Shown piece after piece: positions 23,785 to 64,000 of a stretch of DNA of 64,000 nt; positions within the stretch are counted from its first letter, which is position 1; the number at the start of each line of letters is the position of its first letter. The stretch is taken from positions 19,282,001 to 19,346,000 of the forward strand of contig OX597828.1 of assembly GCA_951406725.2 (NCBI GenBank), given 5' to 3'. The position numbers were made by a program, and so were the translations under genes. The DNA comes from Octopus vulgaris (taxonomy: Eukaryota). Below the pieces are notes generated by a model. It did no database searches. It worked only from the letters and a program-made list of their open reading frames with translations, and was not told the origin of the DNA.

Positions 23785-23800
23785 CACTTTCATTGCAAAC

Positions 23801-28076: not shown

Positions 28077-28092
28077 GTATTTTAAATACAAT

Positions 28093-35544: not shown

Positions 35545-35659
35545 CGATTTCTGTTTATTTCATATTTTAAAACTTTCACTACTGTATAACTGAGAAAAAT
35601 ACCTTAACATTTTAACTTGTATATCATTACTTTTACTCAGCTAAATCCTGTAACAGATC

Positions 35660-35665
35660 AATAAA
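35660..35665 (+). terminator. Candidate polyadenylation signal AATAAA downstream of C (copy at 82-87)
   Basis: AATAAA ~115 nt after the stop. The AT-rich context makes this weak. Confidence 0.3.
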
Positions 35666-36203
35666 CAAATATTTTATATATCTATACAGCTGTAAAATAT
35701 AATAAAATATAAAACCATAATCCTTATATTTATTGAACTTGTGTTATTTTCTGTGTGCAATATGAATATATGAAGTTTAAAGACATTCAAACTGAGTACT
35801 GAACATTTAACTCTGCATTGGAACTGAATTATTTAATTTTTTTCTTTTTTAAGCTGTAGGTGCAATAGTCACCAATCTTGGCTTTGCTTTTTATGCTTTT
35901 GATGTCCATAAAAGAATGGCCAATTAAGAAATAAAATTGATTAAATCAATTACATACTCTATACACATTTCTGGCCCTGTACACATTTTGTGAATCGGAA
36001 TTTTAATGTAACTATGTGTATACCATATCTCGTCTTTTATCCACAACTCATTTTGGTCGTTGGACTGCAGCCATTCTAAGTCACAACCTAAAAGGCATTT
36101 TTTAGTTAAACACATCAACCCCAAAACTCATTTATTTTAAAATTGGGTAGTTATTCCATCAGTCTCTATGATAGAACAGCTAAATTATGAGGGGGTATAA
36201 TAA

Positions 36204-36235
<32 letters not shown>

Positions 36236-39075: not shown

Positions 39076-39131
<56 letters not shown>

Positions 39132-41364: not shown

Positions 41365-41594
41365 TCTTACTCTTTTTACTCTTCTACTTGTTTCAGTTAT
41401 TTGACTGCCGCCATGCTGGAGCACCGCCTTTAGTCGAGCAATTCTACCCCGGGACTTATTCATTGTAAGCCTAGTACTTATTCTATCGGTCTCTTTTGCC
41501 GAACCGCTAAGTAACGGGGACGTAAACACACCAGCATCGGTTGTCAAGCAATGCTAGGGGGACAAACAGAAACACACAAACATATACACACACA

Positions 41595-41655
<61 letters not shown>

Positions 41656-41801
41656 GACAGGCTTCTTTCAGTTTCCGTCTACCAAATCCACTCACAAGGC
41701 CCGGGGCTATAGCAGAAGACACTTGCCCAACATGCCACGCAGTGGGACTGAACCCGGAACCATGTGGTTGGTTAGCAAGCTACTTACCACACAGCCACTC
41801 C
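41365..41801 (-). mobile_element. SINE family 1, unit 2 only
   Basis: Reverse complement of the family consensus; absent at the matching unit 1 position (~7533-7728). Confidence 0.85.
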
Positions 41802-42856
41802 TATTTTGTGTTTTATTTACTTTGCTAGGTAGTCGTTTTAGGATCGACTAGTCACGACTAGCTAGCGCTGTTGCGCGAGTACACGAGTGCGCGCACCGGG
41901 ACCACTCTTTTTAAATAGTACCCACTCCTCATATCCTCCATTCTAAAAAAAAAAAAACTCAGAAGGCTTTGGTAGGTCGAAGGCTACAGTGCAAAACACC
42001 TGTCCAAGGTGCTACGCAGTTGAACCGAATCCGTGACAATGTGATTGGAAAGCAAGCTTTTTACCACACAGCCACGCCTCTTTTGCCTCAAGAAGTTGTT
42101 AGATATCTACTTTAACTTCGATAAATACATAAAAAATTGTTAGATATCTACTTCGACTATGATAAATCGTTTTGTTTTATTCAACGGTTTCCCCCCGAAT
42201 TAATCCATTTTCATTTTTTAATTGATTTTCAACTTTTCTTTATCCTTTTTTTCCCTTACATATTTAACTCTTTCGGGTCAGTGAAATTACATTTTCTTTG
42301 CTATAGGAAGTTGTTAAAATGTGCTTTATTGAACTGCGATAACTGTTGTCGAGTGACCAAATCAATGTTTTTCTTATCTAATTGATTTGTGCCTATAATT
42401 TCTCAGTTGCTTTTCATCTGTTTATATTCTCTCATCACTAAGAGTTACGTGTTATCGTAACTCCATGACAACACTGATCGAGCGACACCTATGATCAAAC
42501 CTGCTCCATGCATGCGCCTTTTCATATATACAGGATAACATAGTCCTGCGTGTATTTCTTTATTTAAGACGGTAGGATGAGATTTCAAAAGAATTGGCTG
42601 CTATTTCGTGCAAATTGAGCAACTTCTAAGGAGCTGCTTCGTTTTCACTGAAATACTTCTCTTTCTCTTTCATACATAAACGCATTCAATCTGTCTCTTC
42701 CGCGCCTTCAAACACACATTCACACACACACATTCTCCCCATTTCTCTCTCTCTCTCTCTCTTTCTCTCTGCCTCACACACACACACATTTCCTCTCACT
42801 TTTACTCTCTTCCTCTCACATGCACACTCTCTCACAGACGTTTCGAATTCACATAC

Positions 42857-42896
<40 letters not shown>

Positions 42897-45800
42897 CTTT
42901 GTATTATATAAAGCTTTTAAAATGCCAGAGGTAATAAAAATGGCATAAAGATAGAACTTAAATAAAACCGATGCGATCTTCCTATTTAAGTCCCGTACCT
43001 GTCAGACAGGATGTCAGCTGTATTATCTGTAAACGACCATGCGAAGGAGAGGTGACGAGAAAGACCCCTTTAGTACACTACACGGTTGATAGAAGGCTTC
43101 GATTGGTTGGGTTGCACATTGGTGTGTAACAGAGCAAGAGACAAAAGTGCGCCAATACCAACCAATCAAAGTAGTGGACACAACAGGGTGCAAAACAGTG
43201 GCCAAAGGCTAGCTGTTATCTACTACGTCCGTACTCATGTATATATAACAGAGAGAGAGAGAGTCTGCTAAACATCTATTCATTGTAAGAGGACTGTGTG
43301 GTAGGAAGCTTGCTTCCCAACCACATAGTTTCGGGTTCAGTCCCACTGCATGGCACCTTGGTTATGCATTATCTACGAAAGCCTTGGACCGACCAAAGCC
43401 CTGTGAGTGGATTTGGTAGATGGAAACTACAAGAAGCCTGTCAGGTGTGTGTGTGTGTGTGTGTGTGTCAGTGTTTGTCCTCCCCCCCCGCCACTATTTG
43501 ACAACCAGTGGGCACATGCATCACAACTATATGTGCGCAGGCAGGTACGTTGATAAGCAAGTAGGTAGGGTGGGGGGGCAGGCAGGTAGGTAGATACGCT
43601 GGTTTCTTTCAGTTTCTGTTAACCAAATCCACTCACAAGGTTTTGGTTGGCCCAGGATCAAAGTACAAGACATTTGCCCAATGCGACACCCTGTGGGATT
43701 GAACCTGAGACCACATAGTCAACCCCACAGCAACACCTGCACCTATAACCACAGATGTGCCTAATCACTTCTTCATATTAAATTTTGTTTATTTTTAAAA
43801 CAAAGTACCAATCTCGATCTGAAGACAGCATCTATGCCACTTTGGTCATTAAAAATTCCTAATTTGATGGGTTATATCAAAAGTGCTGCTGAGAACTGGA
43901 GGCCTTGACTTCAGGTTCAAGACCACACTGGTTTGATGAGTCTACTCTGTCACAATGACTTGACATGAGTTGGCAGCAGAATGCAGTTTAGTCTCATACC
44001 CAAAGAAAGTGGACAACAAATACTATGGGGATGTGCAGCTTTTGGTACATTGGATCAAATCATCAGCAGTAATTTTGCTATGCTCAAAAGGAAAGGTCTT
44101 CAGCCAGTGTGTTTTGCTTACGGTAACATAGACTACCAGCAAAAGTTTTGAAAATAAATTAAGATCAACACAAAGAACCATGGAAAGGAGAACGCTAAAG
44201 ATTAACAAAAATGGATAAGTGGAGAATCAACAGGATAAGAGCAGCAACAGATTTAACAGATATTACCTGGAAAAAAAAAAATTCTGAAATGGTTTTTTTG
44301 GTAGGGACGTAAAAAGCACCATTCGAGTGTGATTGTTACCAGCGTCCCCTTACTGGCACTTGTGCCGGTGGCATGTGAAAAAACATTTGAGCGAGGTCGT
44401 TGCCAGTGCCGCTGGACTGGCTCCTGTGCAGGTGGCACATAAAAAACACCATTTGAGTGTGGCCATTGCCAGTACTGCCTGACTGGCCCTCGTGCCAGTG
44501 GCATGTAAAAGCACCCACTACAGTCTCGAAGTGGTTGGTGTTAGGAAGGGCATCCAGCTGTAGAAACTCTGCCAGATCAAGATTGAAGCCTGGTGCAACC
44601 ATCTGGTTCACCAGTCCTCAGTCAAATCGTCCAACCCATGCCAGCATGGAAAGCAGATGTTAGAGCGGCTAACAGGCTTCCATACCAGTGGTACATAAAA
44701 GGCACCATTCGAGTGTGATCATTACCAGCGTTGCCTTACTGGCACTTGTACCCGTGCTAGTAGGATGCTAAGAGCACCATCCGAGCGTGATCATTGGTAG
44801 AGGGCACCATTCGTGCGTGATCATTACCAGCATTGCCTTACTGGCACCTGTGCCGGTAGCATGTGTAAAAGGTCATTGCCAGTATGGCCTGACAGGCCTC
44901 CGTGCTGATGGCACGTAAAAAGCACCCACTACACTATCAGAAGGGTATCCAGCTGTAGAAACTCTGCCAGATCAAGACTGGAGCCTGGTGCAGCCATCTG
45001 GTTCGCCAGCCCACAGTCAAAATCGTCCAACCCATGCTAGCATGGAAAGCGGGCATTAAACAATGATGATGATATGTGTTTTAAAGAAAGGACAATAAAT
45101 GGAATAGCAAATTGACAGAGTGGACACCACATACAGAAGAAATGAAATGAAAGATTATGCAGAAGTTGGAATGAAAACTTTGTTAAATTCTTCAGCATCC
45201 AAACATGGATGAGGAAAACATCTGGCCATGGTTGGTAGAAAGAACGTACTGAGCAGGGGTGTATATCCTGGATGTTCTAGGTGTGCGCTGCACCATCATC
45301 GAAAATGGTAAATTCATTATGAACATTGATCTTACTTATTAATTTAATCATAAATCATAGTGGAAAACTTTTGTTATACCTCTGCTTGAAATTGGCATGT
45401 ATCCTGAAATAGCACTGTGCAACTCACAGCTCATTGTATCATAATATAGTACCAGGCATATCATAAAATAGTGGGGAAAAGGCAAAAAATTAATAACAAT
45501 GGGTGTGTGACAGCTTTGACAGCACAGTCACGTGTTCATTTTTGTTGTGAGAAGTTGTATGTTTAAATTAATTTAAAATTCCTAAACTAAAGCTAATTTT
45601 TCTTACAGGTATTTTATCCTTACTATATCATCATATATTCTATTTATTTTATTTATATACCCTTTTCAAGCCTAGCCAGGTTCATGGGCCCAGTTTCCCG
45701 GTTTCTATGGCATATGTGTCCCCCCCTGCTGGACAGGATGCCAGTCCATCGCAGCATTACTCAAGAAACAGGAAGAGAGAGTGAGAGAAAGTTGGGGCAA

Positions 45801-46529
45801 AAGAGTACAACAGGGGTCGCCGCCACCCCCTGCTGGAACCTCGTGGAGCTTTAGATGTTTTTGCTCTATAAACAGACACAACGCCCGGTCTGGGAATCGA
45901 AACTGCGACTCCACTGCCCTAACTACTGGGCCATTGTGCCTCCACATATCATCATATAACTGTGATCTTAATTTTTTCTTTCAAACTAATAATACACTTT
46001 TAGAAGTCAAAAACAAAACCTAAGTTAGATCAAATACTGAAAGATTGTGTTGATATTTTGCTCAGTGAATTTTGTGATTTTCTTAGTTATGTTCTTAGGC
46101 ATTTTATTTGAAATTTAATTAGTGTTGATCTTAAATGTTTTTATATTAATAAAAATACACACTTTTAATTTAATTTTCAGTGAATATATGCTGATTAGTA
46201 ACAAAATTTAAGAGCTTCACAGCCTAAATTGTACTTGTGAGATGACTGTTCAGCAAGGTGGCAAGCTGGCAGAAATGTTAGCGCGCCACACAAAATGCTT
46301 AGCAGTATTTCATCTGACATTACGTACTGAGTTCAAATTCTGCCGAGGTCGACTTTGCCTTTCATCCTTTCGGGGTCGATAAATTAAGTACCAGTTACGC
46401 ACTGGGGTCAATGTAATCGACTTAATCCCTTTGTCTATCCTTGTTTGTCCCCTCTATGTTTAGCCCCTTGTGGGCAATAAAGAAATAAGAAACCTGTGTA
46501 GCCTAGTATAATACCAAGTAAAGTTTTGC

Positions 46530-46907
46530 ATAAATTTGAATGAGGATCATCAGAGGACAATCAGTGACATGGTGGATGTTGTTGGTCTGTAATATGGGTC
46601 CATGCAGGCAATCCTAACATCTGATCTGAACATGTAGCATGTCTCTGCCAAGTTTTTCTCCTACGTGCTGACCACTGAACAAAAAGAGCATTGTGTTGAA
46701 GTCTCTCTTTTACCTGTTTCAGTCATTTGACTGCGGCCATGCTGGAGCACCGCCTTTTAATCGAGCAACTCGACCCCAGGATTTATTCTTTTGTAAGCCC
46801 AGTACTTATTCTATCGGTCTCTTTTGCCGAACCGCTAAGTAACGGGGACGTAAACACACCAGCATCGGTTGTCAAGCAATGCTAGGGGGACAAACACAGA
46901 CACACAA

Positions 46908-46942
<35 letters not shown>

Positions 46943-47160
46943 CATATATACGACGGGCCTCTTTCAGTTTCCGTCTACCAAATCCACTCACAAGGCATTG
47001 GTCGGCCCGGGGCTATAGCAGAAGACACTTGCCCAAGATGCCATGCAGTGGGACTGAACCCGGAACCATATAGTTGGTTAGCAAGCTAATTACCACACAG
47101 CCACTCCTGTATCTGTTGAGATTCCCATCAATATGCCAATGGTGGCCCCTCCTTCATGTC
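46530..47160 (+). mobile_element. Decayed mariner transposase fragment interrupted by a SINE
   Basis: Translates as LNEDHQRTISDMVDVVGL*YGSMQAILTSDLNM*HVSAKFFSYVLTTEQKEHCVEV, resembling the mariner second HTH and the WVPxxL linker region. Confidence 0.65.
46706..47109 (-). mobile_element. SINE family 1 inserted in the mariner fragment
   Basis: Reverse complement of the family consensus. Confidence 0.85.
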
Positions 47161-47334
47161 CTGCTGGGTTTCTAGCAACCCCTTCTCACCAGGTTAGCCT
47201 GGTAGGGTTGCTTGTTCAGTTGACAGCAATTCAACCATGAAGTAAATAGGATGTACTGGATTCCATGTTACCATTTAGCATTCATGAGAGACCTCACAAG
47301 TGATCTCACACACACACACCCATATGGACATATA

Positions 47335-47565
47335 TCTGTGTGTGTATGTGTGTGTGCGTGTGTATGTGTGAGTGTGTGTTTGTGTGTGTGCGTGTGTATG
47401 TGTGTGTGTGCGTGTGTGTGTGCATGTGCATGTGTATGTCTGTGTGCATGTGTGTGTGTGCGTGTGTATGTGTGCGCACGTGTGTGTGCGTGTGCATGTG
47501 TGTGTGTATGTGTGTGTGTATGTGTGTGTGTGTGTATGTATGTATGTGTGTGTGTATGTATATGG

Positions 47566-47596
<31 letters not shown>

Positions 47597-47600
47597 CGTG
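47335..47600. repeat. Complex (TG)n/(TGTA/TGCG) microsatellite, unit 2 only
   Basis: Directly visible; it produces the spurious CV/HT-repeat ORFs. Confidence 0.95.
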
Positions 47601-47821
47601 TCTTTATGCTTATGTTTGTCTCCCACCACCTCTTGACAGCTGCTATTCGCTTCTTTATGTCTCTGTGACTTAGAGGTTCAGCAAAAGAGACGACAGAATA
47701 AGCACCAGGCTTGAAAATAAGTAATGGGGTTGATTTATTTGACTGACCCCTTCAGGTCACTGCCCCAGTATCATTGCAGTTCAATAATTGAAACAAGTAA
47801 AAAATAGCAGACAGAAGGTGC

Positions 47822-47861
<40 letters not shown>

Positions 47862-48093
47862 AATCCAAACGGGAAAACAAAAAAACAACAACAGTGGAAC
47901 AATTACAGTATTATTATTAATAGGCGCTCGTGCAGGAGTGGCTGTGTGGTAAGTAGCTTGTTTTCCAACTACATGGTTCCGGGTTCAGTCCCACTGCGTG
48001 GCACCTTGGGCAAGTTTCTTCTACTATAGCCTCAGGCCAACCAAAGCCTTGTGAGTGGATTTGGTAGACGGAAACTGAAAGAAGCCCATCGTA

Positions 48094-48137
<44 letters not shown>

Positions 48138-49290
48138 TGTGTGTGTTTGTGTGTCTGTGTTTGTCCCCCTAGCATTGCTTGACAAGCGATGCTGGTGTGT
48201 TTATGTCCCCGTTACTTAGCGGTTCGGCAAAAGAGCCTGATAGAATAAGTACTGGGCTTACAAAAGAATAAGTCCCGGGGTCGAGTTGCTCAGTTAAAGG
48301 CGGTGCTCTAGCATGGCCGCAGTCAAATGACCGAAACAAGTAAAAGAGTAAAGAGTAATATCAATCATCATCATCATCATCATCGTTTAACGTCTGTTTT
48401 TCATGCTGGCATGTGTTGGACGGTTCGACTGGGGTCTGGGAAACCAGGAGGCTGCACTAGGCCCCAATCTGACCTGGCAGTGTTTCTACAGCTGGATGTC
48501 CTTCCTAACACCAACCACTCCAAGAGTGTAGTGGGTGCCTTTTACATGCCACCAGCACGGAAGCCAGTCAAAGCGGCACTGGCATTGGCCACATTTGGAT
48601 GGTGCTTTTTACGTGCTACCAGCACGGGCTCACAACTACAATTTCCATTTGATTTGATGTTGATCTACTTGACTCAATAGGTCACCTCAAGAAAGGCATG
48701 TCATTCTACGATCCAAGGTACTTTTGAGTGGGCTGGCTATGCAACACTGGTGTAGGTTACAACTGAAGATTCACTTTATTTGCGGGGTCTTCTCAGTCAC
48801 AGCATACCTCCAGAGGTCTCGGTCTTTTGTCATTGCTTCTGTGAGGCTTAATATTTGAAGGTCATGCTTTACCACCTCATCCTATGTCTTCTTGGGTCTC
48901 CCTCTACCCTGGATTCCTACCACTGTTTGGGAGTGGCACTTCTTCACAGCTCTCCTCATCCATCCACAGTATATAACCATACCAACACAAACGTCTCTCA
49001 TTGGTATGGTCATGTACTATGAATGGATGAGGAAAGCTGTACAAAGGACAATCCAATTATCTATTTACATTATAACATAATATACTATGAATATAATATA
49101 ATATAGGTGCAGGAGTGGCTGTGTGGTAAGTAGCTTGCTAACCAGCCACATGGTTCCAGGTTCAGTCCCACTGCATGGCACCTTGGGCAAGTGTCTTCTA
49201 CTATAGCCTCGGGCCGACCAAAGCCTTGTGAGTGGATTTGGTAGACGGAAACTGAAAGAGGCTCGTCGTATATATGTATATATATATATG

Positions 49291-49362
<72 letters not shown>

Positions 49363-50232
49363 TGCGTTTGTGTGTCTGTGTTTGTCCCCCTAGCATTGCT
49401 TGACAACCGATGCTGGTGTGTTTATGTCCCCGTTACTTAGCGGTTTGGCAAAAGAGACCGATAGAATAAGTACTAGGCTTACAAGAGAATAAGTCCCGGG
49501 GTCGAGTTGCTCGATTAAAGGCGGTGCTCCAGCATGGCCGGAGTCAAATGACTGAAACAAGTAAAAGAGTAAAAGAGTAACTAACAATTATTTGAAAAAA
49601 CAAAACAGCCAACAATTTGTTTCGACTTATATACATTTTTTAATATACAAACGATTCAATTCCCTTATTGAATTTGAATTGAGACCCCTTTCGGTCATGA
49701 CTGACCGTGGGATTGCACCTAGAAAGTTACCCTCCGAGGCACAAGTCCGGGCAAGGTTGTTTATGGAAGACCGGCAGTCCCCTCTTCACGCCACCAGTGT
49801 TATCCAAGGGAAAGGCAAAGGGGCTGATACAGCTTGGCACCTGTGACGTCGCAACTCATTTCTACAGCTGAGTGAAGTGGAGCAACGCGAAATAAAGTGT
49901 CTTGCTCAAGAACACAACATGCAGCCCGGTCTGGGACTCGAACTCACAACCTCATGGTCGTAAGATCGACGCTTTAACCACTGAACCATACACCTTCACC
50001 GGAAGAAATACTGCTAATATATTTGTGCAGCATCCTAACGATTCTACCAGCTCGCCGCTTTTGAGGGCCTAACAATAATGAATGCCAGCGAGTAGAATAA
50101 AAAGAGAAAGCGAGCGAAATGATGGAACAAGACGCAGTGATGCGAGACTGAAAATATTTCACTTCCGAATAATACAATTCTTCAAAATATTGAAAACATG
50201 ACACATAACACTGAAGAAGTCTTTCTACACAC

Positions 50233-50322
50233 CAGTTGCCCTGATGAGGCTTATATATAAGGGAATTGAATTGTTTATATATTAAAAAATGTATATAAGT
50301 CGAAACAAATTGTTGGCTATTT
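50233..50322 (+). ncRNA. Candidate hammerhead ribozyme, unit 2 copy
   Basis: Same core as the unit 1 copy: CTGATGA at 50241, GAAAC at 50302. Confidence 0.65.
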
Positions 50323-50595
50323 TGTTTTTTTAAATGATTGTTTCTTATATTATATTCATAGTATATTATGTTATATTATGATATAAATAAATTATTTGAT
50401 TGTTATTTGTAACTCTCTATTTAATTTATTATACGTAATTTGCATTGTACCCATATTTATGTGGTATTCAACCAACATACAAGTGAATTGGATGTTTTAC
50501 ACATACCTTTGAAGGAATTTTTTCCTTTGTTTGTTACCTCATATTTATATATATATATACATTTGCTTCAGTCATTAGACTGTGGCCATACTGGG

Positions 50596-50874
50596 TGTAG
50601 TGTGTGCGCGATTTGAATATAGAGGCACCTACCTTCTCTTCTTAGTGACGGAGACCCTCCAACGGTGACTAGTCCTTCCACACAGCCCCGACCCGAACAC
50701 TAACGATAGCAGCTGCTAGCCCAAACCCTTAGCGACGTCCTCACACATCTTGTCACCTCCACGACCCACGTTGGAAAGGGCTCAATTCCCCGCTCCCTGC
50801 GCACGCCTGACGCTGGCCCCTTCCGGTTGCCCTAGCTTCCGGTCAACGCACCCGGCTGCTGACGTCATCCCACA
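50596..50874 (-). repeat. 3' LTR (279 bp)
   Basis: tgtagtgtgtgcgcg...atcccaca; follows the integrase end on the minus strand. Confidence 0.95.
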
Positions 50875-50887
50875 CGCCACCCTGATC

Positions 50888-53707
50888 TTAAAGATCACAA
50901 TCTCTCCGCTCCATGTTGTAGTCCACCATCCAACCGGGAGAGCGCCTTGCTCGTCGAGATCTTCTGAAGCTGGGCTCCTCGTTCTCCCCCTCTCCAGAAT
51001 CATCGTCCGTCAAAGCAACAATCTTGCGAAGGTCCAAGACGTGTCGTGGTGTTCCATCTACGGATACGTTGCTTCTGGAATTGATCGCCGTCACCGTTCC
51101 TCTGCTCCATTGAGACGTACAGCACGCCTTTGGTGGCTTGACCCAGACTTCCTCCCCTATTTTCACGCGAACGGGTCCCTTCTCTTCCTCTTGACCCTCC
51201 GGTACTTTGCTCGGGTGCCTCCATTCATATTTGAACACAGCTCTCTGCGGCACAGATTCCTCAGCTTGTCCGGATCGGGGAGACAAGTTGTACCAAAAAA
51301 ACTGCTTCAAGTGGCGAAATGTGCCCTCTTTCCGCTATGGCCTTGACTGTCCGATGGTGCCTCTCCACGATCCCGTTACCGCTCAGCCTATACGCTGCTC
51401 TGAACAAGCGTCGCACATTCCACCGATCAAGCATAACCCTCAATGCTTCCGAACGAAACGCTGCCCAGTTGTCCATCAGTAGTTCTTCCACGGGACCTCT
51501 CTCTAAAAATATCCCGTTCAGGATCTGCGCAATCTCGTCAGCAATGCCCGATCTCAACTCCTCCAAATGGCCAGCCGGCCCGGCCCGCAGTCGATCATGG
51601 AGAGGTACATTTGCTGACGGTAGTGTGTCACATCCACAGCTAGCCTTTTCCAGTCCTGCTCCATGGAAAGGCTTCCCTGGTCATGCCCACACGGAGCAGG
51701 GTTGATGGACTGACACCTGTCACAGCTCCCGACCACCTTCCGGACGCTTCTCCTAGTGACGTCAGCATCAATTTTTTTTGCCAGATACAGGGTCCTGTCC
51801 ACACCCAGGTGATGCATATCATGCAGTTTCTTCAGTTCAGAGTCATCCAACCAACACGCCACAGCTATCCCTTTCCGGGCCTCCTCCAGTTCTTCCAACC
51901 ACGCTCTTTTCACCCTGGTCAGTACGTCCGCCCTGTTTTTCTCCGAAGGCTCGAAAACCACGTTCAGCTTCAGTCCGAACTCGGCGATCAATTCACCTAG
52001 AACTCCTAGACGGCGCTTCACTAACATCTCCACAGCACCTTTCGTCCGCACTCTCCTGTCACCGGTGATCACCGATCCTACCCAGCCAAGCACAGTGGCC
52101 GAATCCGTCCGGATTTCAATTGTGCGCAGCCCCCATTTCAAGGCCAAGTTCACCCCTTTCAGCAGCGCGTCTAATTCGGCGACATTGATGTGGTTGAAAT
52201 CATCTGCTTTCCAAAGCCAGGCCGCGTCCTCCACCGCAGTGCCTTCGATTGCCAATACCACCCCTATCGCTATACTGCTAGCATCACACCAGACGGTCCC
52301 GCATTTCGTCTTGGGCACATACCAGTTCCCCCCGACCGGGTCTTCCGCTCTTGTCCTCTCTAGGATTTCCTGCATCATCGCCACCGTCCCTTCTCCCACC
52401 TTGTCGCCCCACCTCTCTCCTTCTGCTCGTCTCTTGGTGTAACTACACGCCGTGCGCAGCCATCCAGCGATCGGGTAGTGACCGACCAACATCCCACACA
52501 CCGAGAACAGCTCTCTCCTGCTGACGCTGGAACTCAGCTCTGGGATTTCATTTCCTCTCCAGAACACCAATTCACCTGATCCAACTCTTCGCAGCTTCAG
52601 CCCCAGCGCGGCTCCCCCTTCAATCGACTCCGGTGGCTTAGCAATCAGTCCGAACTCCTCCAGATGTCTAACTACCTCGTCGGCTGGCACTACAGTTTCG
52701 TCCACCAAAATGTCGTCAATGTAGGAGCTGGTGGCCTTTCTAATCTTGCCGTCTTTCCCTAGGACGGACCTAAGCACTGCCGCCATGATCTTCGGAGCGG
52801 AATTCAGCCCGAAACCCAGCCTGGTTAGACAGTACGTCCGGCCCTTGTACCGCACCAGCTGATATCGCCACAGTTTGTCGCTCACATGGAGCTGCAAGTA
52901 TGCCGATCTCAAGTCGACAATCGTCGCTGCCTCAGTCGACTGTCTCCACTTACGTAATGCCTCGCCAGAAACGTCTGTCGCCTCACCTCCCGTGTGACAC
53001 GATATGTGCTGGTTTAGCTCCCTGAAGTCCAGCACCGGTCTGACTTTTCCCTTCGTAGGCTGCACCACCGCCATCAGGAGTAGCACTCCGCCCGCTACCT
53101 CCTCCTTCCAAGGGACAAGGACCCCTTCCTCGATCCACCTCTCCACCTCGTCTTCAAACTCGACTCTGGCGTGGCCTTTCAGGGTATGCTGGTAACAGCT
53201 CACCCTGTTCTCCAGCGTCGGGGGCCCGTCCTTCCATCGCCACTCTATCGTCCACCGCTGACCATCGAACGCAGCCTGAAAGTCTTTGTCCTCGATGGTG
53301 TAAGCTGTGCAGTCCCTCGCGGGGCTCTGCTCTCTCTGGTGATCCTGACTTGCAGTGCACGACGCCCCCACGCTTCCGAACATGACCTCCTTTCCCACAA
53401 CACTGACGCCACCGAGGCAGTTGATGGCGTCCATCCCCATCACCACGTCAACTCCATCTATCATGCGTTCGGCCACAATTGCCTGCAGCCTTAGCGTCGT
53501 GCCGCGCACCACTATCTCTACCTTGCTGCTGCCTCTGCAACGGATTTCGCTGCCGTCGACCGCCCGGACACTACTCACCCCGTTCCATTCCTTCGTCACC
53601 CTCTAAGTCACCAGGGTGGTCATACAGCCCGTATCCACAAGGGCCTTGAACGTCTCCCCCTCGGCCTCCACGTCAATCAATGGCAGTGTCTCCAATAGCA
53701 CCTCTAC
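50888..53707 (-). pseudogene. pol: Disrupted pol (protease, RT, RNase H, integrase)
   Basis: Protease ALVDTG followed by an in-frame TAG at 53603-53605; RT YIDD; RNase H WCDAS/AEL/TDS/ADVL; integrase HH-CC and D,D,E (LAVDV, LMDN, IVER) split by frameshifts near 51560 and 51300. Confidence 0.92.
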
Positions 53708-54468
53708 TCATTTGAGGGGAAAGTTCGAGAAGCAGCAATTTCCCCGCGGTCGTTTCCCTGGTTGCAATCACGGGCAATGTGCCCTGTCTGCCTGCATCGA
53801 TAGCAAACGGGCCCCGGCTGCATACAGTCCCGCGCCATGTGTGGTCCCTGGCATCTAAAACACCGTCCTGAGAACGGCCGCTGTTGTTGCACGGTAAGCT
53901 TCTGTACCTCTTTCTCGGGACGTCGTCTGTCTTTACGCGCCTCCGTCACCGCCATCGCTATCGCCTTCCGCCCAGAGTGTCTCGTCGACATGCGAGCCTG
54001 AGCTACAAGTTCGCTCAACGGCATCTTTTTAACCCCGGGCAGTCGTTGTAGGTGAATCCCTACATCGTCGGGGAACCCATTCACGAACGCCAATCGGGCT
54101 GCTCTCTCCAGTCCCTCTCCCGCAAACCCGGCCAGAGTTGCCAGCCTTCTAACTTCTGATGCAAAGTCATCCACTTGGCCTCCCGTCCACCTGATTGCAC
54201 CTAGCTTAGCAAAAGCTGTGTACTCGCATTCCGTGTAGGCATCACACAAGCGTCGCTCTATATTCTCCTCGCTGAGCCGTTCCTCTTCATCCATCTCTAG
54301 GTATAGCGTTAACGCACTCCCTTCTAAATACAGCGCCATAAGACTCGCCACGTCGCTTATGCCCTGCAGTCTTGCCACCAGCCTGATTTTGCGAATCCAG
54401 GCCACTACATCGCCTTCGCTATTATAAGGTCTGACGACGTCACTGGCGATCCTAATTTTTGCGGACAT
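53704..54468 (-). CDS. gag: Retrotransposon Gag (254 aa)
   Basis: Two CCHC zinc knuckles: CFRCQGPHMARDC and CYRCRQTGHIARDC. Confidence 0.92.
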   Translation of the reverse strand: MSAKIRIASDVVRPYNSEGDVVAWIRKIRLVARLQGISDVASLMALYLEGSALTLYLEMDEEERLSEENIERRLCDAYTECEYTAFAKLGAIRWTGGQVDDFASEVRRLATLAGFAGEGLERAARLAFVNGFPDDVGIHLQRLPGVKKMPLSELVAQARMSTRHSGRKAIAMAVTEARKDRRRPEKEVQKLTVQQQRPFSGRCFRCQGPHMARDCMQPGPVCYRCRQTGHIARDCNQGNDRGEIAASRTFPSNE

Positions 54469-54512
54469 CGTGTTGAAAACAATGTAAATGTTTAAGAATG
54501 GCCGAAATAGCT

Positions 54513-54805
54513 TGTAGTGTGTGCGCGATTTGAATATAGAGGCACCTACCTTCTCTTCTTAGTGATGGAGACCCTCCAGCGGTGACTAGTCCTTCCACAC
54601 AGACCCGACCCGAACACTAACGATAGCAGCTGCTAGCCCAAACCCTTAGCGACGTCCTCACACGTCTTGTCACCTCCACGACCCACGTTGGAAAGGGCGC
54701 AATTCCCCGCTCCCTGCGCACGCCTGACGCTGACCCCTTCCGGTTGCCCTAGCTTCCGGTCAACGCACCCGGCTGCTGACGTCCAGCTGCTGACGTCATT
54801 CCACA
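54513..54805 (-). repeat. 5' LTR (293 bp)
   Basis: Direct repeat of 50596-50874 with ~7 substitutions and a 14-bp duplication (cagctgctgacgtc). Confidence 0.95.
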
Positions 54806-56848
54806 CTGGGGCACCATCTTGAAGAGATTTTAGCCAAACGAATTGACTCCAATATTTTTTATTTAACCCTGGTTCTCATTCTGTTGGTTATTTTGTCGAA
54901 CTGCTAAGTTACATACACTTAAGCAAACAAACACCAGTTGTGGTGGAGGACAAAAGGAGATACACGGACTCTTAGGGAGGAGCGAGCCTGTTTTCTCTCG
55001 GTAGTTGCTATGGTGAAAGAAGACGAGAGTAAAAGGAATTGCAACAGGCATGTTTATCTCCAGTCTCCAGCTAATCAACTTTTTCGTTTTCCACATGAAA
55101 CGGAAAATAAGGCTGGAGAAGAAATGCCTGTCGCAAAGTGTGTTTCGTAAAAGATAGAAGTCTATAGCAAATATGTTGCGAGTGAAAGAACCTGTTTAAT
55201 TGAGAATGTAAAAAAGGAGAAAGCAAAGTCTTCAGTGTGAGTATGGGGTTTGTGGGGTCAACTGCGTCCTCTGCTTCATTTTTTGTTATTCACTCATTCT
55301 CATTTAATTGTATAGATTTTAATTGTTTGTTTATTCATATGTTTCGTCTCATTCGATACCCTGACCCCAACGTTTGTTTTGTCCCCTCTTTTTCTCAACC
55401 TTATGGTGAATAAAGAAATACTCTCTCTCACACACACACATACACACACTGTGCTTCTTTCAGATTCTGTCTACCAAATCCACTTATTAGGCTTCACTTG
55501 TGCCCGAGGCTATAGTAGAAGACATTTGCTCAAATGTTCCACCCTGTGGGACTGAACCTAGAAGCATATGGTTGGGAAGCAAACTTCTTACCACACAGCT
55601 ACACCTGTGCTCATACACACAAACACACACACATATATTCATATATATATTATACTCAGACACAAAGATGGCTTCCACACAGTTTCTGCGCACGAAATTC
55701 ACATCATCATCATCATCATCGTTTAACGTTTTGACTGAGGGCTGACAAACCAGATGGCTGCACCGGGCTCCAATCTTGATCTGGCAGAGTTTCTACAGCT
55801 GGATGCCATTCCTAACGCCAACCACTCCGAGAGTGTAGTGAGTGCTTTTTACATGCCATCTGCACGGAGGCCAGTCAGGCGGTACTGGCAATGACCTCGC
55901 TCGAATCTTTTTACACGTGCTACCGGCACAGGTGCCAGTAAGGCCGCGCTGGTAACGTTCATGCATGAATGGTGCCCTGTGGCAACAATCACACTCGGAT
56001 GGTGCTCTTGGCACCCTACTAGCACGGGCACAAGTGCTAGTAAGGCAATACTGGTAACGATCACACGCGAATGGTGCTTTTTATGTGCCACTGGTATGGA
56101 AGCCAGTTAGCCGCTCTGTCAACATGCTGCATATTTCATTTTTTATATAGGTGCAGGAGTGGCTGTGAGGTAAGTAGTTTGCTTACCAACCACATGGTTC
56201 CAGGTTCATTCCCACTGCATGGCACCTTGGGCAAGTGCCTTCTACTATAGCCTCGGGCCAACCAAAGCCTTGTGAGTGGATTTGGTAGATGGAAACTAAG
56301 CCCGTCGTATATATATATATATATGTATACTTATGTGAGTGTTTATGTGTTTGTGTTTGTTCTCCCCAACATAGCTTGACAACCGATGGTGGTGTGTTTA
56401 CATCCCCGTAACTTAGCAGTTCAGCAAAAGAGACCAATAGAATAAGTACTAGGCTTACAAAGAATAAGTCCTGGGGTCGATTTGTTCGACTAAAGGCGGT
56501 GCTCCAGCATGGCCACAGTCAAATGACTGAAACAAGTAGAAGTGTCTATATAATTAATACATGACATGAGTCTATGACCGATTGCTGTATTTTTATGCAT
56601 TTCGAAATTTGAGGGCAATATCAGTTTATTTGAATAACTTTTGAGAGCATTCCTTAAAATTACTTTCATTCTTATGCTATGTAGTCACTCAACATGCTAG
56701 AACTAGTGCCAAGCCTCCTTCAATTAACAAAAAGACAGGATTTTAATGGTTAGAATACCTTTGAAATTAGGTTACCTTAATCATGTCTGAGCTAAAATAA
56801 AAATGACTAAAGCTGCTGCTTCTACTACTCCCATTTGTACTACTACTG

Positions 56849-56885
<37 letters not shown>

Positions 56886-58988
56886 CACAGATAATGATTT
56901 CAGATTTTGGCACAAGGCCAGCAGTTTTAGTGGCAGGAGATTATTGGTTACATTAACCTCAATACATGACTGGTACTTGGATTTCTCAACCCTCCACTAC
57001 ATGGAAGGCCAAGCTGACCTCAGCAAAATTTCAATTCAGAAAATAAAGAGCTGAATGAAATACCACTAAATATTTTGTTCAACATTCTAACGAGTCTGCT
57101 CACTCATCACTGACGAGATAATAATTAATACAAATCATAATTTCTAATGTGGGCAAAGGGCCTGAAATTTTGAAATGGGAGTAGAAGGGGCTTAATTGGT
57201 ACCATGGACACCAGTATTTAACTGTTTCTTGATTTTGTTGAATCTGAAAGAATAAAGGCAAAATTGACCTTGGTGGGATTTGAACTCAGGACATAAAGAG
57301 CCAGAAGAAACAACACATAACATTTTACCCCATGCGCCAGTGATTCTACCAATCCATGCCCTGACAAAAAATGATAATAGTTTCAAATTTTGGCACAAGG
57401 CCAGCAGTTTTCAGGGAAAGGGGAAGTACACTACATCGACTCCAGTGATCAATGTAAACACCGATGATCAACTGGTACTTATTTTATTGACCCTAAGAGG
57501 ATGAAAGGCAAAGCCAACCTTGGCAGAATTTAAACTCAGACTGTGAAGACAAGTAAAATACTGGTTAGCATTTCGCCTGGTATGCTAACGATTCTGCCTG
57601 CTCACTGCCTTAATAATAATTATGATAATAATAATAATGCTGAGCTGAGACCCTCTTCGGTCATGACTGACCATGGGATTGCACCTTGAAAGTTACCCTC
57701 TCAGGCACAAGTCCGGGCAAGGTTGTTTATGGAAGACCAGCAATCGCCCATGAATACCAGCCTCCCCTCTCCACACCACCAGTGTTATCCAAGGGAAAGG
57801 CAAAGGCCGTTACAGCTTGGCACCTGTGACGTCACAACTCGTTTCTACAGCTGAGTGAACTAGAGCAACGTGAAATAAAGTGTCTTGCTCAAGAACACAA
57901 CACGCAGCCCGCTCCAGGATTTGAACTCACAACCTCACGATTGTAAGCTCGATGCTCTAACCACTGAGCCTTGCACCTTCACATAATAATAATAATAATC
58001 CTGAAATTTAGTGGGAGGGGACTAGTTGATTACATTGACCCCAGTGTTTAACTGGTACTTAATTTATCGACTCGGAAAGGATGAAAAACAAAGTTGACCA
58101 GAATTTGAAATCAGAACATAGCAGCAGACAAAATACGGCTAAGCATTTCACCCAGCATCCTAACGATTCTGCGAGTTTGCCGCTTTGATGATGATGATAA
58201 TGATGATGATAACAACAACAACAACAACAACAACAGTAAACATAATGAGCCAATTCAATATACACTATGGGGTTTATTGACCTGCTACAAGTAACAAGCA
58301 CCTCTCTCAAGTCATGACCTGCAGTCTTTAAAACATAGGAAGAACACATAGGATGATATAGTCTAAGATAAACTGTGTCATGAGAGATGGCTTGATTGTG
58401 ACTAGAATTTATTTTTATTATAGTTTTCTATGTTTAGGTTTGTCTTAAGTTTCAACAACAATAACATACCAACAAGAAACAGTAACAAATTCTCCCTCAT
58501 ATCACACTCAGCCATCTCTAAATGAGGAGAATCACACTATATAATGTAGAACTAGATAAGCTGTGCATGTACAGAGATGGGATTGTCATGGGCAATACAC
58601 TTTTCCCTATCATTGTGGAGGAACAAGGTCAAGCTGGAGCAAAATATGATTGTCTCTGACAACATTGTCATCATTTGTGTACCATCTCTACCTCATTCAC
58701 CAGCACAAGGGCACAACCAGTGGCAACAGTACTTTTTGTAGTAGTAGGAGTTGTAGCAGCAACAGCAGTGGTAATAGATTCTTCATACTTCCACATACAC
58801 ATACATGTGCACCTCCAAGAACATTATCAGGATAACTGCTGTCAATGGACCTGGCAATTAGAAGTCATATTTACTTAGCATTATCATCTCTCGCCAAAAA
58901 TAAAATAACCTTTTAAATGCAACATGTATATATCATTTCTAAATAAGATGTTTCTCCTTCTATTTTATCTAGCACTTTCATTGCAAAC

Positions 58989-61376
58989 ATGAATAGACTA
59001 ATGGTATTTGGAATCATCTGTGAAAATAAAACAAAGGTTTCTCTTCTCTATGCCACACACACGATTTCCATTAATGGTTTTACGTCACACGTCAATATCG
59101 AGGCTGAATATATAAATGAAAGCCAACACAAGACAGAAGCTAAGTTTGTTTTCCCTGTGGAAGAAGACAGTGCCGTATATAAATTCGAAGCTAAAATTGG
59201 TGATGTCCATTTAGTTGCCAAATCTAAAGACAAAGATGTTGCCAAAAAGGAATACAAACAAGCTGTAGATAAAGGTCAGTCTGCTATTTTGTTGCGAGAG
59301 ACAAGTACATCTGGCGATATTTTTGAGTATAGTTTAGGTAATATTCCAGCAAATGAAAAGATCCGTTTACAAATATGCCTTGTTTCTGAACTTTCTTGTG
59401 AAGTTGATGGGGCAGTGAAATTTCATATGCCATTTGTGCTTAATCCCAGATATGGTCTTAAACCTGCAGATGAAAATTATCAAAATGCACCTCAACCAAA
59501 AGAGTTTAGTTTCAATGCCTCCGTCAACTGGAATTCACAAATCAAAGACATCAAATCAGAACATCCAGTTAAGGTGGAATATCAGGATAACAAGTGTCAT
59601 GCTACTGTGAGAATGGCAAAGGAATTCAATTTTGAGAAAGACCTTCTTCTGCAAGTGTACTATGAAGATGTAGAAAAACCACAAGTAATTTTAGAGAAAG
59701 GAGATGAGAATTCTAAAGGAATGTTTTCTAAAGATATTATGATGATAAATGTGTTTCCAGAACTTCCGCAAGTAAAACAATCTGCCGCTAATGATTATAT
59801 TTTTGTTATTGATCGCTCAGGAAGCATGAGTGGAGAGAAAATTGAAGCAGCAAAAGATACTTTGTTACTTTTCTTAAAAAGTTTACCTTTGGGTTGCTCA
59901 TTTAATGTTATCAGCTTCAATAATGATTTTGAATTTCTGTTCAAAGAAGGAAGCCAAGAATATAGTGAAGATTCTCTGAATGAAGCATTGAAATTCCAGA
60001 AAAATCTAAATGCTTCGGGAGGGACAGAAATTCTTAGTGCACTGAAATCACTCTCTGTCAAAAAACCATTTCAAAATTTCCATCGACAAGTATTCTTAAT
60101 AACTGATGGTGAAGTCTACAACACAAACGATGTCATTCAATTGGTCAAGTCACAAGTAAACAACACACGATACTTCACAATTGGTATTGGTTCTGGAGCT
60201 TCTACAGAATTGGTCAAAGGTATTGCCCGCGCAGGGAAGGGACAAGCAGAGTTTGTGATGACAAATGACAACCTTAAGGCAAAAGTTATGCGTTTATTAA
60301 AATTGTCAATGCAACCATTTGTATCTTCGGTTTGTCTCTCTGCTAAACATGGTGAAAACAATAAAGAATTATCCTTTATTTCAGTTCCAGAAAGGCTGCC
60401 GTGTATTTTCAGTGAAGAAAAATTAATCCTGTATCTAGTTTTGCATGAAGCTGAGACTAGTTGCAAAAATGTGAAATTGAATCTTTGTGGTAAAATTGGT
60501 GAAACAGACTTTTCACTTGATTTTGAAGCAAGTCTGTTGGGACAGAATAATAAGGAAATGACAATACACCGTCTTTGTGTGAAAAGGAAAATACAGGAAT
60601 TGGAATTAAATGAAGATTTGGGTAAAGGTGATGAAATAAAATCAGAGATTATCGATTTGGGTACAATGGCTAATTTAGTTTCAAAGTACACAAGTTTTGT
60701 TGGTTTGGATGAACATGTTCGATTGGATTTTCAAATGGCCTCTCTGGCAGCTCCAACACGTAGTCCCACGAGTGGTTATGTTTCTTCGTCACGAATAAAA
60801 GCGATTGGTTTTGAGGAACAAGTTCCAGAATTTATGAAAAGGCGTTGCATGCCAATGATGTGTTTAGCATCACCACAAGCATACAATCAAAATTCTGTAG
60901 TTGCTGAAAGAGTGGATGACATTGATGATGAATTGGAGGATGACTCTGATGATGGTGATTCTTTTGGTGCTGATTCTGTGGATTCAAGTTGCATGCCTCC
61001 CCCATTTACAGTACGACGTGTGACTGATGAGGAATCCTTTATGTCTTCTGGGTCAACAAATAAAGATATTTTAACATGTTTGGTTGGTCTACAAGCTTTC
61101 TCTGGTTTCTGGAATCTAGACGATCAGTTGGCTCAAGCTCTCAGTATTTCTCTTAAGGATCTGAACAAAGAGAATCCATCTATTAGTGATAAAGTATGGG
61201 CTACAGCTCTTGTTGTTGCTGTACTAAGAGAAAAATTAGCTTCCCAGCATTGTGAATGGGAATTAATGGAAAAGAAAGCAATTGAGTGGCTGGAATCTCA
61301 GAATATACAACCAATGAATTCAGAGAAGTTACTAGAAAAAGCTACAAACTTCATAAAAAACAAAATGGTTGCCTAG
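58989..61376 (+). CDS. VWA5A: VWA5A-like protein, paralog D (795 aa; A-type 5' end, B-type 3' end)
   Basis: Intact ORF with the same domains. The MNRLMV start and upstream flank match A; the C-terminus and downstream flank match B. Confidence 0.9.
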   Translation: MNRLMVFGIICENKTKVSLLYATHTISINGFTSHVNIEAEYINESQHKTEAKFVFPVEEDSAVYKFEAKIGDVHLVAKSKDKDVAKKEYKQAVDKGQSAILLRETSTSGDIFEYSLGNIPANEKIRLQICLVSELSCEVDGAVKFHMPFVLNPRYGLKPADENYQNAPQPKEFSFNASVNWNSQIKDIKSEHPVKVEYQDNKCHATVRMAKEFNFEKDLLLQVYYEDVEKPQVILEKGDENSKGMFSKDIMMINVFPELPQVKQSAANDYIFVIDRSGSMSGEKIEAAKDTLLLFLKSLPLGCSFNVISFNNDFEFLFKEGSQEYSEDSLNEALKFQKNLNASGGTEILSALKSLSVKKPFQNFHRQVFLITDGEVYNTNDVIQLVKSQVNNTRYFTIGIGSGASTELVKGIARAGKGQAEFVMTNDNLKAKVMRLLKLSMQPFVSSVCLSAKHGENNKELSFISVPERLPCIFSEEKLILYLVLHEAETSCKNVKLNLCGKIGETDFSLDFEASLLGQNNKEMTIHRLCVKRKIQELELNEDLGKGDEIKSEIIDLGTMANLVSKYTSFVGLDEHVRLDFQMASLAAPTRSPTSGYVSSSRIKAIGFEEQVPEFMKRRCMPMMCLASPQAYNQNSVVAERVDDIDDELEDDSDDGDSFGADSVDSSCMPPPFTVRRVTDEESFMSSGSTNKDILTCLVGLQAFSGFWNLDDQLAQALSISLKDLNKENPSISDKVWATALVVAVLREKLASQHCEWELMEKKAIEWLESQNIQPMNSEKLLEKATNFIKNKMVA

Positions 61377-63490
61377 CGATTTCTGTTTATTTCATATATT
61401 AAAACTTTCACTACTGTATAACTGAGAAAAATACCTTAACATTTTAACTTATATATCAATACTTTACTAATTCCTCTAAAATATCTGTAAACAAATATTT
61501 CATATATCTATACAGCTATAAAATATAATAAAATATAAAGCCATAATCCTATATTGTTGTATTTCGGAATGGTCATTTTGCCAGTTTAGCCAATAAAAAC
61601 ACACGCACTATATATTTGGTGTTACTTTGCTTCAGTGTTATTTATTTTTTACATTAATCTTAATCTTATTTCGGCCAGAGTTCTTTCGTCACACTCCTGT
61701 GACCACATCAGTGGTCCTTTGCTTTCTTCTTTCTTATTTGTGTCTCACCTTACTAACTGTCAGCCATTTTGTGTTTCTATTGTATGTGTCTTCATTTGCG
61801 CATGTGTATATCTCTATGTGCATCTATGTTTCAACACACAACTTCACATAAAAAAATCTTGCTCATCAAATATATGAACGTAACATAATCCTGTAATTGT
61901 TGATTTTGTGTTATTATTATTATTTATTTTTTTTGTGTGTATCAAGTGTGAATATATTTCCAAGACTTTGCAGGTTCTGTGACAAACTTCTTACTTTTAT
62001 GTTATCTAAATTGTAACCTTCCATCAAAATATTATTCTAATTTATGTCCCAAACACCAGTTTAGTAATCCTTTCTACTGGAAGTACAAGGCCTCAAATTT
62101 GTGGGAAGGGATTAAGTCGATGACATCGACCCCAGTACGTAACTGGTACTTATTTGATCGACCCCGAAAGGATGATGAGCAAAGTCGACCTTGGTAGAAT
62201 TTGAACTTAGAATGTGATGACAGATGAAATACCGCAAAGCATTTTGCCCAGGGTGCTAAAGATTCTGCCAGCTTGCTGCCCTAAAACACCAGCTTAATAA
62301 TGACAAAGTTATATCACTAAATTCTTCATTATTTTGAAAATTAATTGGAACAAAGGCAATGCAATTCAGCAGAGATATGGTAGAGAATTAGTTAGAGATA
62401 TTTAAACAGAGTTCTCAGCATTTAACACTACTAAATTGAGGAAAACAATCATTATTTAGCTGTAGGTTCACATTGTCTTTGGTCATTATATGTTTCTTTA
62501 CTGGCCACACAGGACTGAAATACAGAGGGGAAAAAATATAAAGTAGAGCTTTTCTTTTGGGGAAGAAGAAGAAAAGAAGAAAAAAAAAGTTGGTCGAATT
62601 CCGATCAAAAGGGATCGTGAAAAAAAAAAATGGTGGTGGGAGTGTAATCAATAGGGATCGTGTATCACAGAAATGTCAATGTAAAAAGAGAAAACAGATT
62701 AAGTTTATCCATGGAAAGAAAAGCCTACAGAAAAGACCACGGAAACCTTCGGCAATAGTGTCATGCAAAAATAAACACATTACAGTAAGTGGCTCTCTTT
62801 TCCCCTTTTTTTTTTTGGTTCGTAGGATTATGCTCAAGCTGGCTCTGTCATTCACACATGCCATCCTTGCTACATTCACCCATCTTTTTTTTAAACATTC
62901 ACTAGACAAAACTTCCCTCTCTACTCTCACCTTCCTCTTCAAATAATACACATACACATTCTTTCACTATAGCCACAAGTACAATGAAAATGGTTCTTCC
63001 TTCCAGTTTCAAGGAAGGTGGCACGACAATATTCACGATAGACTCATCTTTTGTCATTAGAAATTCTTTAAAGAAACAGGGTTTAATAAATAAATATCTG
63101 AGACAAATAATTGTATAAAACTCTATCCTACGTTTATCACATCTGTATTTTATCTTGGTTCATCATTACTATCATTCTTATGATATTAGAAACTATTTGA
63201 AAAGCCTTGACATTTATGTGTACATCTTATTCTGGATTTCTGTTAAGAGATTTGCTCTACTCACATCTTCAAGTCAGTGCCCCAGTATGGTTGGAGTTTA
63301 ATAACTGAAACGCGTAAAAGAATGAAAATTATGATGAATCCATTTTAGTTTCATGATGGGATAATATAGAACAAACACTAAAGACCAAAAGTACAACTTG
63401 TTGGGTAGTGTTGTAAGACACAGGAATATGTTGGAAGAGTTTTATCACAAAACTTATGGAATCCATATTCAGTGTTAGCAACGTCAAATG

Positions 63491-64000
63491 TCTTCACCGA
63501 CATATTAAAGGTGATGGCAGCCGTTTTCCTAATGTTAGCCTCATCCTTCTTGATGTAGTGAACAGTGGATCTGTTCACGCTAAAATGGCAGCGAAAGTTC
63601 TCCCTTCCTTCAACATATCCAGAAGTTTCACCTTCTCAGCAATCGACATCATTCTTTGTTTGCATTTAGGCTCAGTATCAGCCTTGGAAGAAGCAGCACG
63701 CTTGGGAGCCATTGCAGGGGATGAAAATGCAAAATTCAACACAAAGAAACAAAAAGAATTACACACTGCACAGCGTAAAATAGTACAGTAAACCACTCAG
63801 CGAGAAAGCTTGAAACGAAATGGCCATGAAAGGGAAGATGCTGCAGATCTGAGCGTCAGTCAAAGCACCAATCACAGGCCAGATTACAAAATAGGAAGCT
63901 GCTATTCGTCATCTCTCTCCATTGCACCAATCACAGCCTGTCTTAAGTTCAAATACCCCTGTATATGCTTTTTTGCTATTTTATGCTTGTTTTGTTGTTC
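63491..64000 (-). mobile_element. Tigger/pogo fragment, third copy (truncated by the window end)
   Basis: Matches the 32483 copy, including the 10-bp deletion. Confidence 0.8.

Follow-up and report, generated by a model that had tools for sequence, protein, structure and literature searches.

We analysed a 64,000-nucleotide stretch of the Octopus vulgaris genome (GenBank assembly GCA_951406725.2, contig OX597828.1, forward-strand positions 19,282,001 to 19,346,000; hereafter the window), which carries an intronless tandem array of four single-open-reading-frame paralogs resembling VWA5A, named A, B, C (broken), and D. Gene D (58989..61376, plus strand), whose product of 795 aa consists of VIT, vWA, a linker, and a helical tail, probably has a single origin, in which one paralog of the A type and one of the B type were fused out of register. 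On balance, we favor the view that this one-off fusion left a short repeat as a scar in a positively selected loop, and that the loop likely baits pathogen enzymes. The repeat alone is ordinary; the loop that it marks is the larger result.

Joint and origin of gene D

The sequence-only reading that preceded this work had described D as a join of A-type and B-type segments, and both the flank matches and the diagnostic sites bear this out. D with its upstream flank (57627-60791) matches 22439-25603 in and before gene A at 98.4% over 3.2 kb, and D from 60805 with its downstream flank matches 29804-32988 in and after gene B at 98.1% over 3.2 kb. Gene A (23801..26095, plus strand; 764 aa, basic A-type linker) is the best in-window match to the 5' part and upstream flank of D, and gene B (28093..30369, plus strand; 758 aa, short acidic B-type linker) is the closest match to its 3' part and downstream flank. 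At diagnostic sites, the 5' end of D carries A-type states, the core is a mosaic, and the tail carries B-type states.

The change from A/C-like to B-like sequence was placed at codon 34/35, about 60804 (putative joint, 60801..60806, plus strand). It separates an A/C-type module of 28 codons that is colinear with A and C (60720..60803, plus strand) from the acidic B-type linker (60804..61061, plus strand). The joint lies at the edge of the second repeat copy, where the parents have no significant homology (9-10/21 nt; 6-13% of in-frame windows are equally good). A homology-guided crossover at this joint was weak at best (23-24/60 nt against 16.7 +/- 3.5; 3.5-5% of windows are as good). Colinearity of D with A through the second copy is also less likely, since this copy is identical to the core-end heptapeptide of B at 17/21 nt and matches A/C at 9-10/21. 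Because the parts meet 35 codons out of register, at a point without homology between the parents, the loop was lengthened, not swapped.

In the proposed course of events, a duplicated A-B pair would have lost about 4.2 kb in frame, bringing the loop segments of two paralogs into tandem, the basic A-type first and the acidic B-type after it. The 4187-bp stretch whose loss from such a pair would yield D (25616..29802, plus strand) comprises the 3' end of A, the spacer, and the 5' part of B. The D junction is also present in the Octopus sinensis protein P0001, which rules out an assembly artefact as its source and indicates that the fusion is real. We infer that the fusion predates the split of O. 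vulgaris and O. sinensis.

The 105-nt repeat and the direction of change

The imperfect direct repeats reported earlier were confirmed: copy 1 (60700..60720) and copy 2 (60805..60825), both on the plus strand, are identical at 18/21 positions and share one reading frame, with a spacing of 105 nt (35 codons). Copy 1 encodes VGLDEHV at the end of the folded core (strand 568-573), is identical in A, B, C, and D, and closes the last core strand in the AlphaFold model. Copy 2 encodes IGFEEQV inside the loop. Compared in codon frame, the copies show four differences, all nonsynonymous. A repeat of at least 18/21 appeared anywhere in 6/500 codon shuffles of a 600-nt segment and in 9/100 shuffles of the whole gene, the binomial chance at a pre-specified pair of positions is 3e-8, and gene D has no other repeat of such quality. 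The likeness is limited to 21 nt. The remaining 84 nt of the unit and the next 84 agree at 24/84, the background level, which rules out a tandem duplication of the 105-nt unit inside D.

Most simply, copy 2 would be the B-type donor's own VGLDEHV strand, brought in by the one-off fusion and now decaying. In O. sinensis P0001 it reads FGVKKHV, and 5/7 residues differ from O. vulgaris D. Separately, the linkers of B and D carry a 15-nt duplication of the slippage type (29833-29859 and 60847-60862; PEFM..CMPMM), which makes them five codons longer than that of P0003 and represents a small separate route to length change.

Gene B has a single motif copy (29804-29824) and joins VGLDEHV directly to PEFM, and its alignment with D contains one 105-nt gap with ends inside the repeat. 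From this, B had been explained as a 105-bp deletion, and the repeat as a built-in switch that varies segment length and content. The direction is probably the reverse. The short junction (VGL..H/N/C-V/I-[PT]E) was found in Octopus bimaculoides P0012, P0015, and P0121 and in the O. vulgaris paralogs P0003 and P0004. A midpoint-rooted tree of nine 3' linker-plus-tail sequences, with Argonauta on a long branch, placed the two D proteins in one clade (98/94) with B as sister (93/92), nested within the short forms. A single gain covers the distribution of short forms and B as a deletion takes a gain plus a loss, so that the 21-nt repeat is most likely a fusion scar. The sequence-only reading had itself named an outcome of this kind as one that would count as its refutation. 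No recurrent module switching was seen either: 1/18 octopus-type proteins has a second motif copy (the D orthologue), and a form with two extra modules was absent from these 18, a set clustered at 90%.

Other paralogs vary in length in their own ways. In the octopus-type P0004 and P0122, the loop is lengthened by duplication of its C-terminal part, unrelated to the D repeat. P0008, P0009, and P0010 represent one octopod paralog whose short linker of 41-42 aa shows conservation (two Octopus species agree at 88%), possibly an ancestral, non-diversifying copy.

Positive selection on the loop

We compared the D loop with both parents and counted 40 nonsynonymous and 3 synonymous differences, with 10-12 synonymous differences expected (P ≤ 0.0013, neutral simulation). 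With this strong excess of amino-acid-changing differences, the D loop is under positive selection. The A/C-type module contributes 15.5 nonsynonymous and 0.5 synonymous differences against A, and the B-type linker 24.5 and 2.5 against B. In the neutral simulation, P was 0.0015-0.0045 for the A-D module, 0.003-0.014 for C-D, and 0.014-0.043 for the 3' half in B-D.

Among the paralogs, DNA identity is 98-99% in the cores and about 96-99% in the tails, and the intervening segment is far less alike. Nonsynonymous divergence (dN) is 0.006-0.009 and synonymous divergence (dS) 0.028-0.034 in the core, compared with a dN of 0.305 and a dS of 0.023 in the A-D module, where amino-acid change is 30-50 times that of the core. 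Since the dS of the loop equals that of the body, the loop is not simply older. The same pattern holds between species. D and its O. sinensis orthologue differ by 10 changes in 121 linker residues and by 6 in 664 others (P=2e-5); this count leaves out 10 positions around a frame disturbance at 524-533 in the P0001 model, which carries a low-quality label.

Domains and predicted structure of gene D

By Pfam, the array genes encode VIT plus vWA proteins, and their nearest relatives among the homologues listed are VWA5A-like proteins of Octopus. In D, Pfam assigned VIT to residues 25-130 (E 4e-28) and VWA_3 to 271-422 (E 2e-24). We placed the vWA domain at 271-430, with its MIDAS (metal ion-dependent adhesion site) at D275/S277/S279/T346/D373. 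This site is intact: in 75 sequences, D275, S277, S279, and T346 are invariant and D373 is nearly so.

The variable loop (60717..61061, plus strand; residues 577-691), our proposed bait slot, has an AlphaFold predicted local distance difference test score (pLDDT) below 50. It is followed by a conserved tail domain (61062..61373, plus strand), which is 104 aa long and all-helical in the model. The prediction docks this tail on vWA at helices 290-300 and 430-438, at a distance from the MIDAS, and the interface includes invariant residues. The core-tail complex prediction scored 0.71 compared with 0.00 for the best control, runs agreed on at least 91% of contacts, and the partner pLDDT was at least 83; the score mark was reached by 51/78 solved and 2/108 mismatched pairs. 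In the structure model, the first strands start at residues 9-17 and no leader helix is present, and D may be cytosolic.

In the octopus loops, no known domain was detected by Pfam, by the ESM Atlas (best 0.82, within chance), or by BLAST against family linkers, searches that would miss short motifs. The full-length D model is matched by a protein of the trypanosome flagellar doublet, PDB 9e5c chain 4s (E 4e-26; template modelling score 0.50), which may be a solved full-length relative showing tail docking.

The same slot across the VWA5A family

The rapid change of this slot extends beyond octopus. The linker was less identical than the core in 170/175 close pairs (medians 45% and 87%, tail 87%), and in 136/141 pairs outside octopods. 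These pairs, whose cores are 75-99% identical, come from 111 full-length homologues and are not independent. Linker length ranges over 43-379 aa, and internal repeats were found in 30/218 linkers.

We also found that the slot holds recognisable host proteins in some relatives. Among 120 homologues listed, eight carry a Pfam domain in it: synaptobrevin in three, ubiquitin in three (Mytilus being included in both groups), and an FG-nucleoporin in two (Procambarus). The slot of Haliotis P0071 contains a near-whole histone H4 (E 1e-25), an insert that Pfam missed. A further 136 representatives at 50% were taken up, of which 17 were set aside as possibly mammalian, 19 had no delimitable loop, and 100 were scanned; five of these 100 contain actin, Nup98 GLEBS+FG, synaptobrevin, ubiquitin, or FHA in the slot. 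This loop census covers part of about 9,400 representatives with E<1e-30.

In a core tree of 36 selected rows, built by a quick method, the captured domains fall on different branches, with at least two uptakes each for ubiquitin and SNARE; several Mytilus records carry each of these two, and both recur on distant branches. Viral and bacterial proteases and effectors are well known to target ubiquitin, SNARE, histone H4, actin, and Nup98. The captured ubiquitin and H4 have strongly diverged from normally near-invariant proteins, and the diverged Mytilus ubiquitin copy has kept its LRLRGG end, which we take to be a cleavage site. Because the slot holds copies of unrelated host proteins elsewhere, evolves fast, and is predicted to be disordered, the loop is likely a bait for pathogen enzymes.

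Some matches are weaker or lie elsewhere. Possible synaptobrevin leads are P0047, P0062, P0065, and P0113 (E 0.003-0.05), as well as P0043 (26.0 bits, cut-off 26.4). UBA in P0189 and P0214 was rejected as a loop domain, being N-terminal and outside the loop, and the ZZ and dNK matches by Pfam were not located within their proteins. By eye, the linkers of P0187, P0050, P0053, P0038, and P0045 presumably resemble host motifs, namely YSPTSPS heptads (C-terminal domain of Pol II), WH2 with polyproline (Pfam E 0.04 for WH2), RS/RGG repeats, formin-like polyproline, and a cysteine-rich hydrophobic segment.

Proposed function of the loop and alternative explanations

In the mechanism that we propose, gene conversion would keep the core and tail of the paralogs alike, and selection would diversify the loop. 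VWA5A would be a cytosolic protein whose tail is held as a clamp against vWA. To a protease or another effector of a pathogen, the loop would pass for the real target, and the attack on it would release or shift the clamp. The vWA domain with its MIDAS would then catch the attacker, as happens to proteases in ITIH4, or a downstream signal would be triggered. The fusion would give D two baits in series, one basic and one acidic. Across the family, the slot would be loaded with mimics of targets (ubiquitin, R-SNARE, Nup98, actin, histone H4, heptads like those of the Pol II C-terminal domain) or with fast-evolving bait peptides, and octopus would build new baits by fusing the loops of paralogs. 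We consider it probable that the loop is a pathogen-facing surface. Bait cleavage with trapping or signalling by the vWA domain specifically is a more tentative proposal, drawn by analogy. Equally tentative is the wider analogy by which VWA5A proteins would be immune traps of the cytosol, a widespread and so far unrecognised class with a slot for integrated decoys, having a function in common with the exon-30 region of PARP4 in vaults and with ITIH4.

Several observations weigh against this interpretation. The excess in the A-C linker (24:4) is not significant (P=0.06-0.11), the part of B-D after the repeat is not clearly significant (P=0.03-0.08), and the selection tests are pairwise comparisons of recombining paralogs in one assembly. 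The linker-plus-tail tree is short, midpoint-rooted, and open to gene conversion, and B could possibly have arisen by a later re-deletion. The core-tail prediction passed for two parts of one chain, with a calibration that is mostly microbial. As the octopus loops match no known host protein, the evidence for decoys comes from distant relatives. Most linkers have no domain recognisable by Pfam (112/120 and 95/100), the captured domains are known from gene models, and the H4 insert of isoform P0071 is absent from isoform P0031. Dictyostelium Vwa1 has a developmental phenotype, not an immune one (PMC10539598).

Four other explanations were weighed. The repeat as a built-in device for inserting or excising 35 codons by recombination, with B being D minus this module, would account for the clean gap in the B-D alignment and its ends in the repeat. 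A crossover of C with D could formally yield B as well, since the 5' end of B is C-type and copy 1 of C agrees with copy 2 of D at 21/24 nt. We nevertheless regard such a device as improbable, given that the short junction occurs in the outgroup and in other paralogs, that O. bimaculoides P0015 already has B's combination of start and linker type, and that the joint sits at the repeat edge where parental homology is lacking. The single second copy among 18 proteins, without any two-module form there, and the change of five of seven copy-2 residues between sister species point the same way. A neutral spacer in which any sequence is tolerated, with flanks homogenised by gene conversion and with insertions that are passengers or annotation errors, is the least likely of the four in our estimate. 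It fits the disorder of the loop, its variable length, the internal repeats, the mostly domain-free linkers, and the non-significant A-C test. However, neutrality expects dN close to dS, and the 40:3 ratio in the D loop, together with ubiquitin and SNARE captures that occur in several Mytilus records and recur on distant branches, speaks against it.

The other two explanations concern what a selected loop would do. It could be an offensive recognition surface that binds pathogen proteins and is not cut, as proposed for PARP4 exon 30 and by analogy with the loops of TRIM5 and MxA. Localised positive selection in a disordered segment, in a slot equivalent to PARP4 exon 30 (PMC4038475), agrees with this, yet the insertion of whole host proteins fits mimicry of a pathogen target better than it fits a binding loop. 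The kept LRLRGG end, a cleavage site, also argues for cutting, and we hold uncut binding to be unlikely, if a little less so than the remaining alternatives. The loop could instead be a host-side address label, with captured segments that direct each paralog to a compartment or partner and no pathogen involved. This would fit the captured domains, all of which are interaction modules, and it would fit Vwa1 of Dictyostelium, which is associated with an SCF ligase and has an effect on development (PMC10539598). But an address label predicts neither a dN far above dS between 98%-identical paralogs nor rapid change between sister species, and the captured ubiquitin and H4 have moved far from their near-invariant originals; we judge it about as improbable as the recombination device.

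VWA5A is widespread and is a tumour-suppressor candidate in people, and to our knowledge it has no agreed function. If the VWA5A loop serves as a slot for bait, animals would have an integrated-decoy system like that of plant NLRs (nucleotide-binding proteins with leucine-rich repeats) on an unrelated scaffold, and the catalogue of captured domains would point to targets of invertebrate and protist pathogens. The unexplained positive selection in vault PARP4 would become testable. The octopus array itself provides near-isogenic proteins with cores about 98% identical and the loop as nearly their sole difference, a natural loop-swap set.

Other features of the window

Gene D lies in the second copy of a tandem unit of about 35 kb (35579..64000, plus strand), which matches 1-25603 and 29804-32988 in blocks of 94-98%. 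Only this second copy contains a long terminal repeat (LTR) retrotransposon (50596-54783), with 271-bp LTRs that are 97.8% identical and with minus-strand open reading frames at 53704-54468 and 51554-53599 (gag-like zinc knuckle, pol-like). Window positions 1-152 match the 3' flank of C and D, which suggests a further array member just upstream.

Gene C (33467..35544, plus strand) is a broken A-type paralog. One extra A shifts the frame near 34540, about 218 bp are missing near 34700, where the two ends of the deletion have a 4-nt sequence in common, and the linker contains a stop. In gene A, the first linker codons (25532-25570) are D-like (RLDFQMAS) and the rest are C-like, and A may carry a conversion tract. 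The A-type proteins of O. sinensis have a C-like linker start, unlike gene A of the window.

Comparison with known systems

Within the VWA5A/BCSC-1 clade, D shares the VIT domain, the vWA domain with MIDAS, the long disordered loop, and the helical C-terminal domain predicted to dock on vWA. Published models of Vwa1 from Dictyostelium and of human VWA5A also have the tail docked on vWA, and autoinhibition was proposed (PMC10539598). The covered parts of that paper treat the loop as a tether and do not discuss positive selection, paralog fusion, or captured host proteins, and those of PMC12540739 contain nothing on the VWA5A loop. In the open-access literature, supplements aside, we found no paper that proposes a bait or decoy role for this loop or describes the octopus array.

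ITIH4 is cut in its variable region 633-713, which serves as bait, and then holds the protease in a MIDAS-dependent manner (PMC7793589). Its VIT-vWA core is homologous to that of D, and in both proteins a variable exposed region directly follows the core: D578 aligns to ITIH1 620, just before the ITIH4 bait region if ITIH1 and ITIH4 numbering are close, as we assumed. However, ITIH4 is a secreted plasma protein with host proteases as targets and a different C-terminal region, and D may be cytosolic and has a helical tail. Having that all-helical domain and no beta-propeller region of the ITIH4 kind, D is not an ITIH4, but it may work like one.

PARP4 is the best PDB sequence match of D (E 7e-38). 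The match to its core runs to 1180, and the tail is matched weakly at 1574-1602, not significantly by itself. Between them, exon 30 encodes a disordered region (1223-1582) under recurrent positive selection (PMC4038475), and D likewise has a predicted-disordered, positively selected stretch that joins its core to its tail. Pfam matched neither a PARP nor a BRCT domain in D, which begins with the VIT region. The authors of the PARP4 study did not propose a bait but that viral proteins are recognised directly, and domain capture is not described in the covered parts (PMC4038475).

Chimeric genes from unequal crossover are known in tandem arrays, as is birth-and-death evolution with gene conversion. 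D is likewise a 5'/3' chimera of neighboring paralogs, in an array with a pseudogene and mosaic tracts. In the NLRP1 and CARD8 protease tripwires, cleavage of a hypervariable exposed segment switches the protein, as it does in the bait region of alpha-2-macroglobulin (PMC7793589). The Pfam scan revealed no sequence relation of D to any of these three, and D has no thioester, FIIND, or CARD domain.

In plant NLRs with integrated decoys (PMC5819176, PMC5814044), host proteins that are mimicked as effector targets have repeatedly been copied into a fixed slot of an unrelated scaffold, and the relatives of D likewise have copies of unrelated host proteins in one slot. The scaffold differs, being VIT-vWA in animals and more distant lineages, with no NB-ARC/NACHT or LRR in D by Pfam. 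Taken together, D is a VWA5A, and not an ITIH4, PARP4, or NLR; by analogy, it may work like ITIH4 and diversify like the NLRs.

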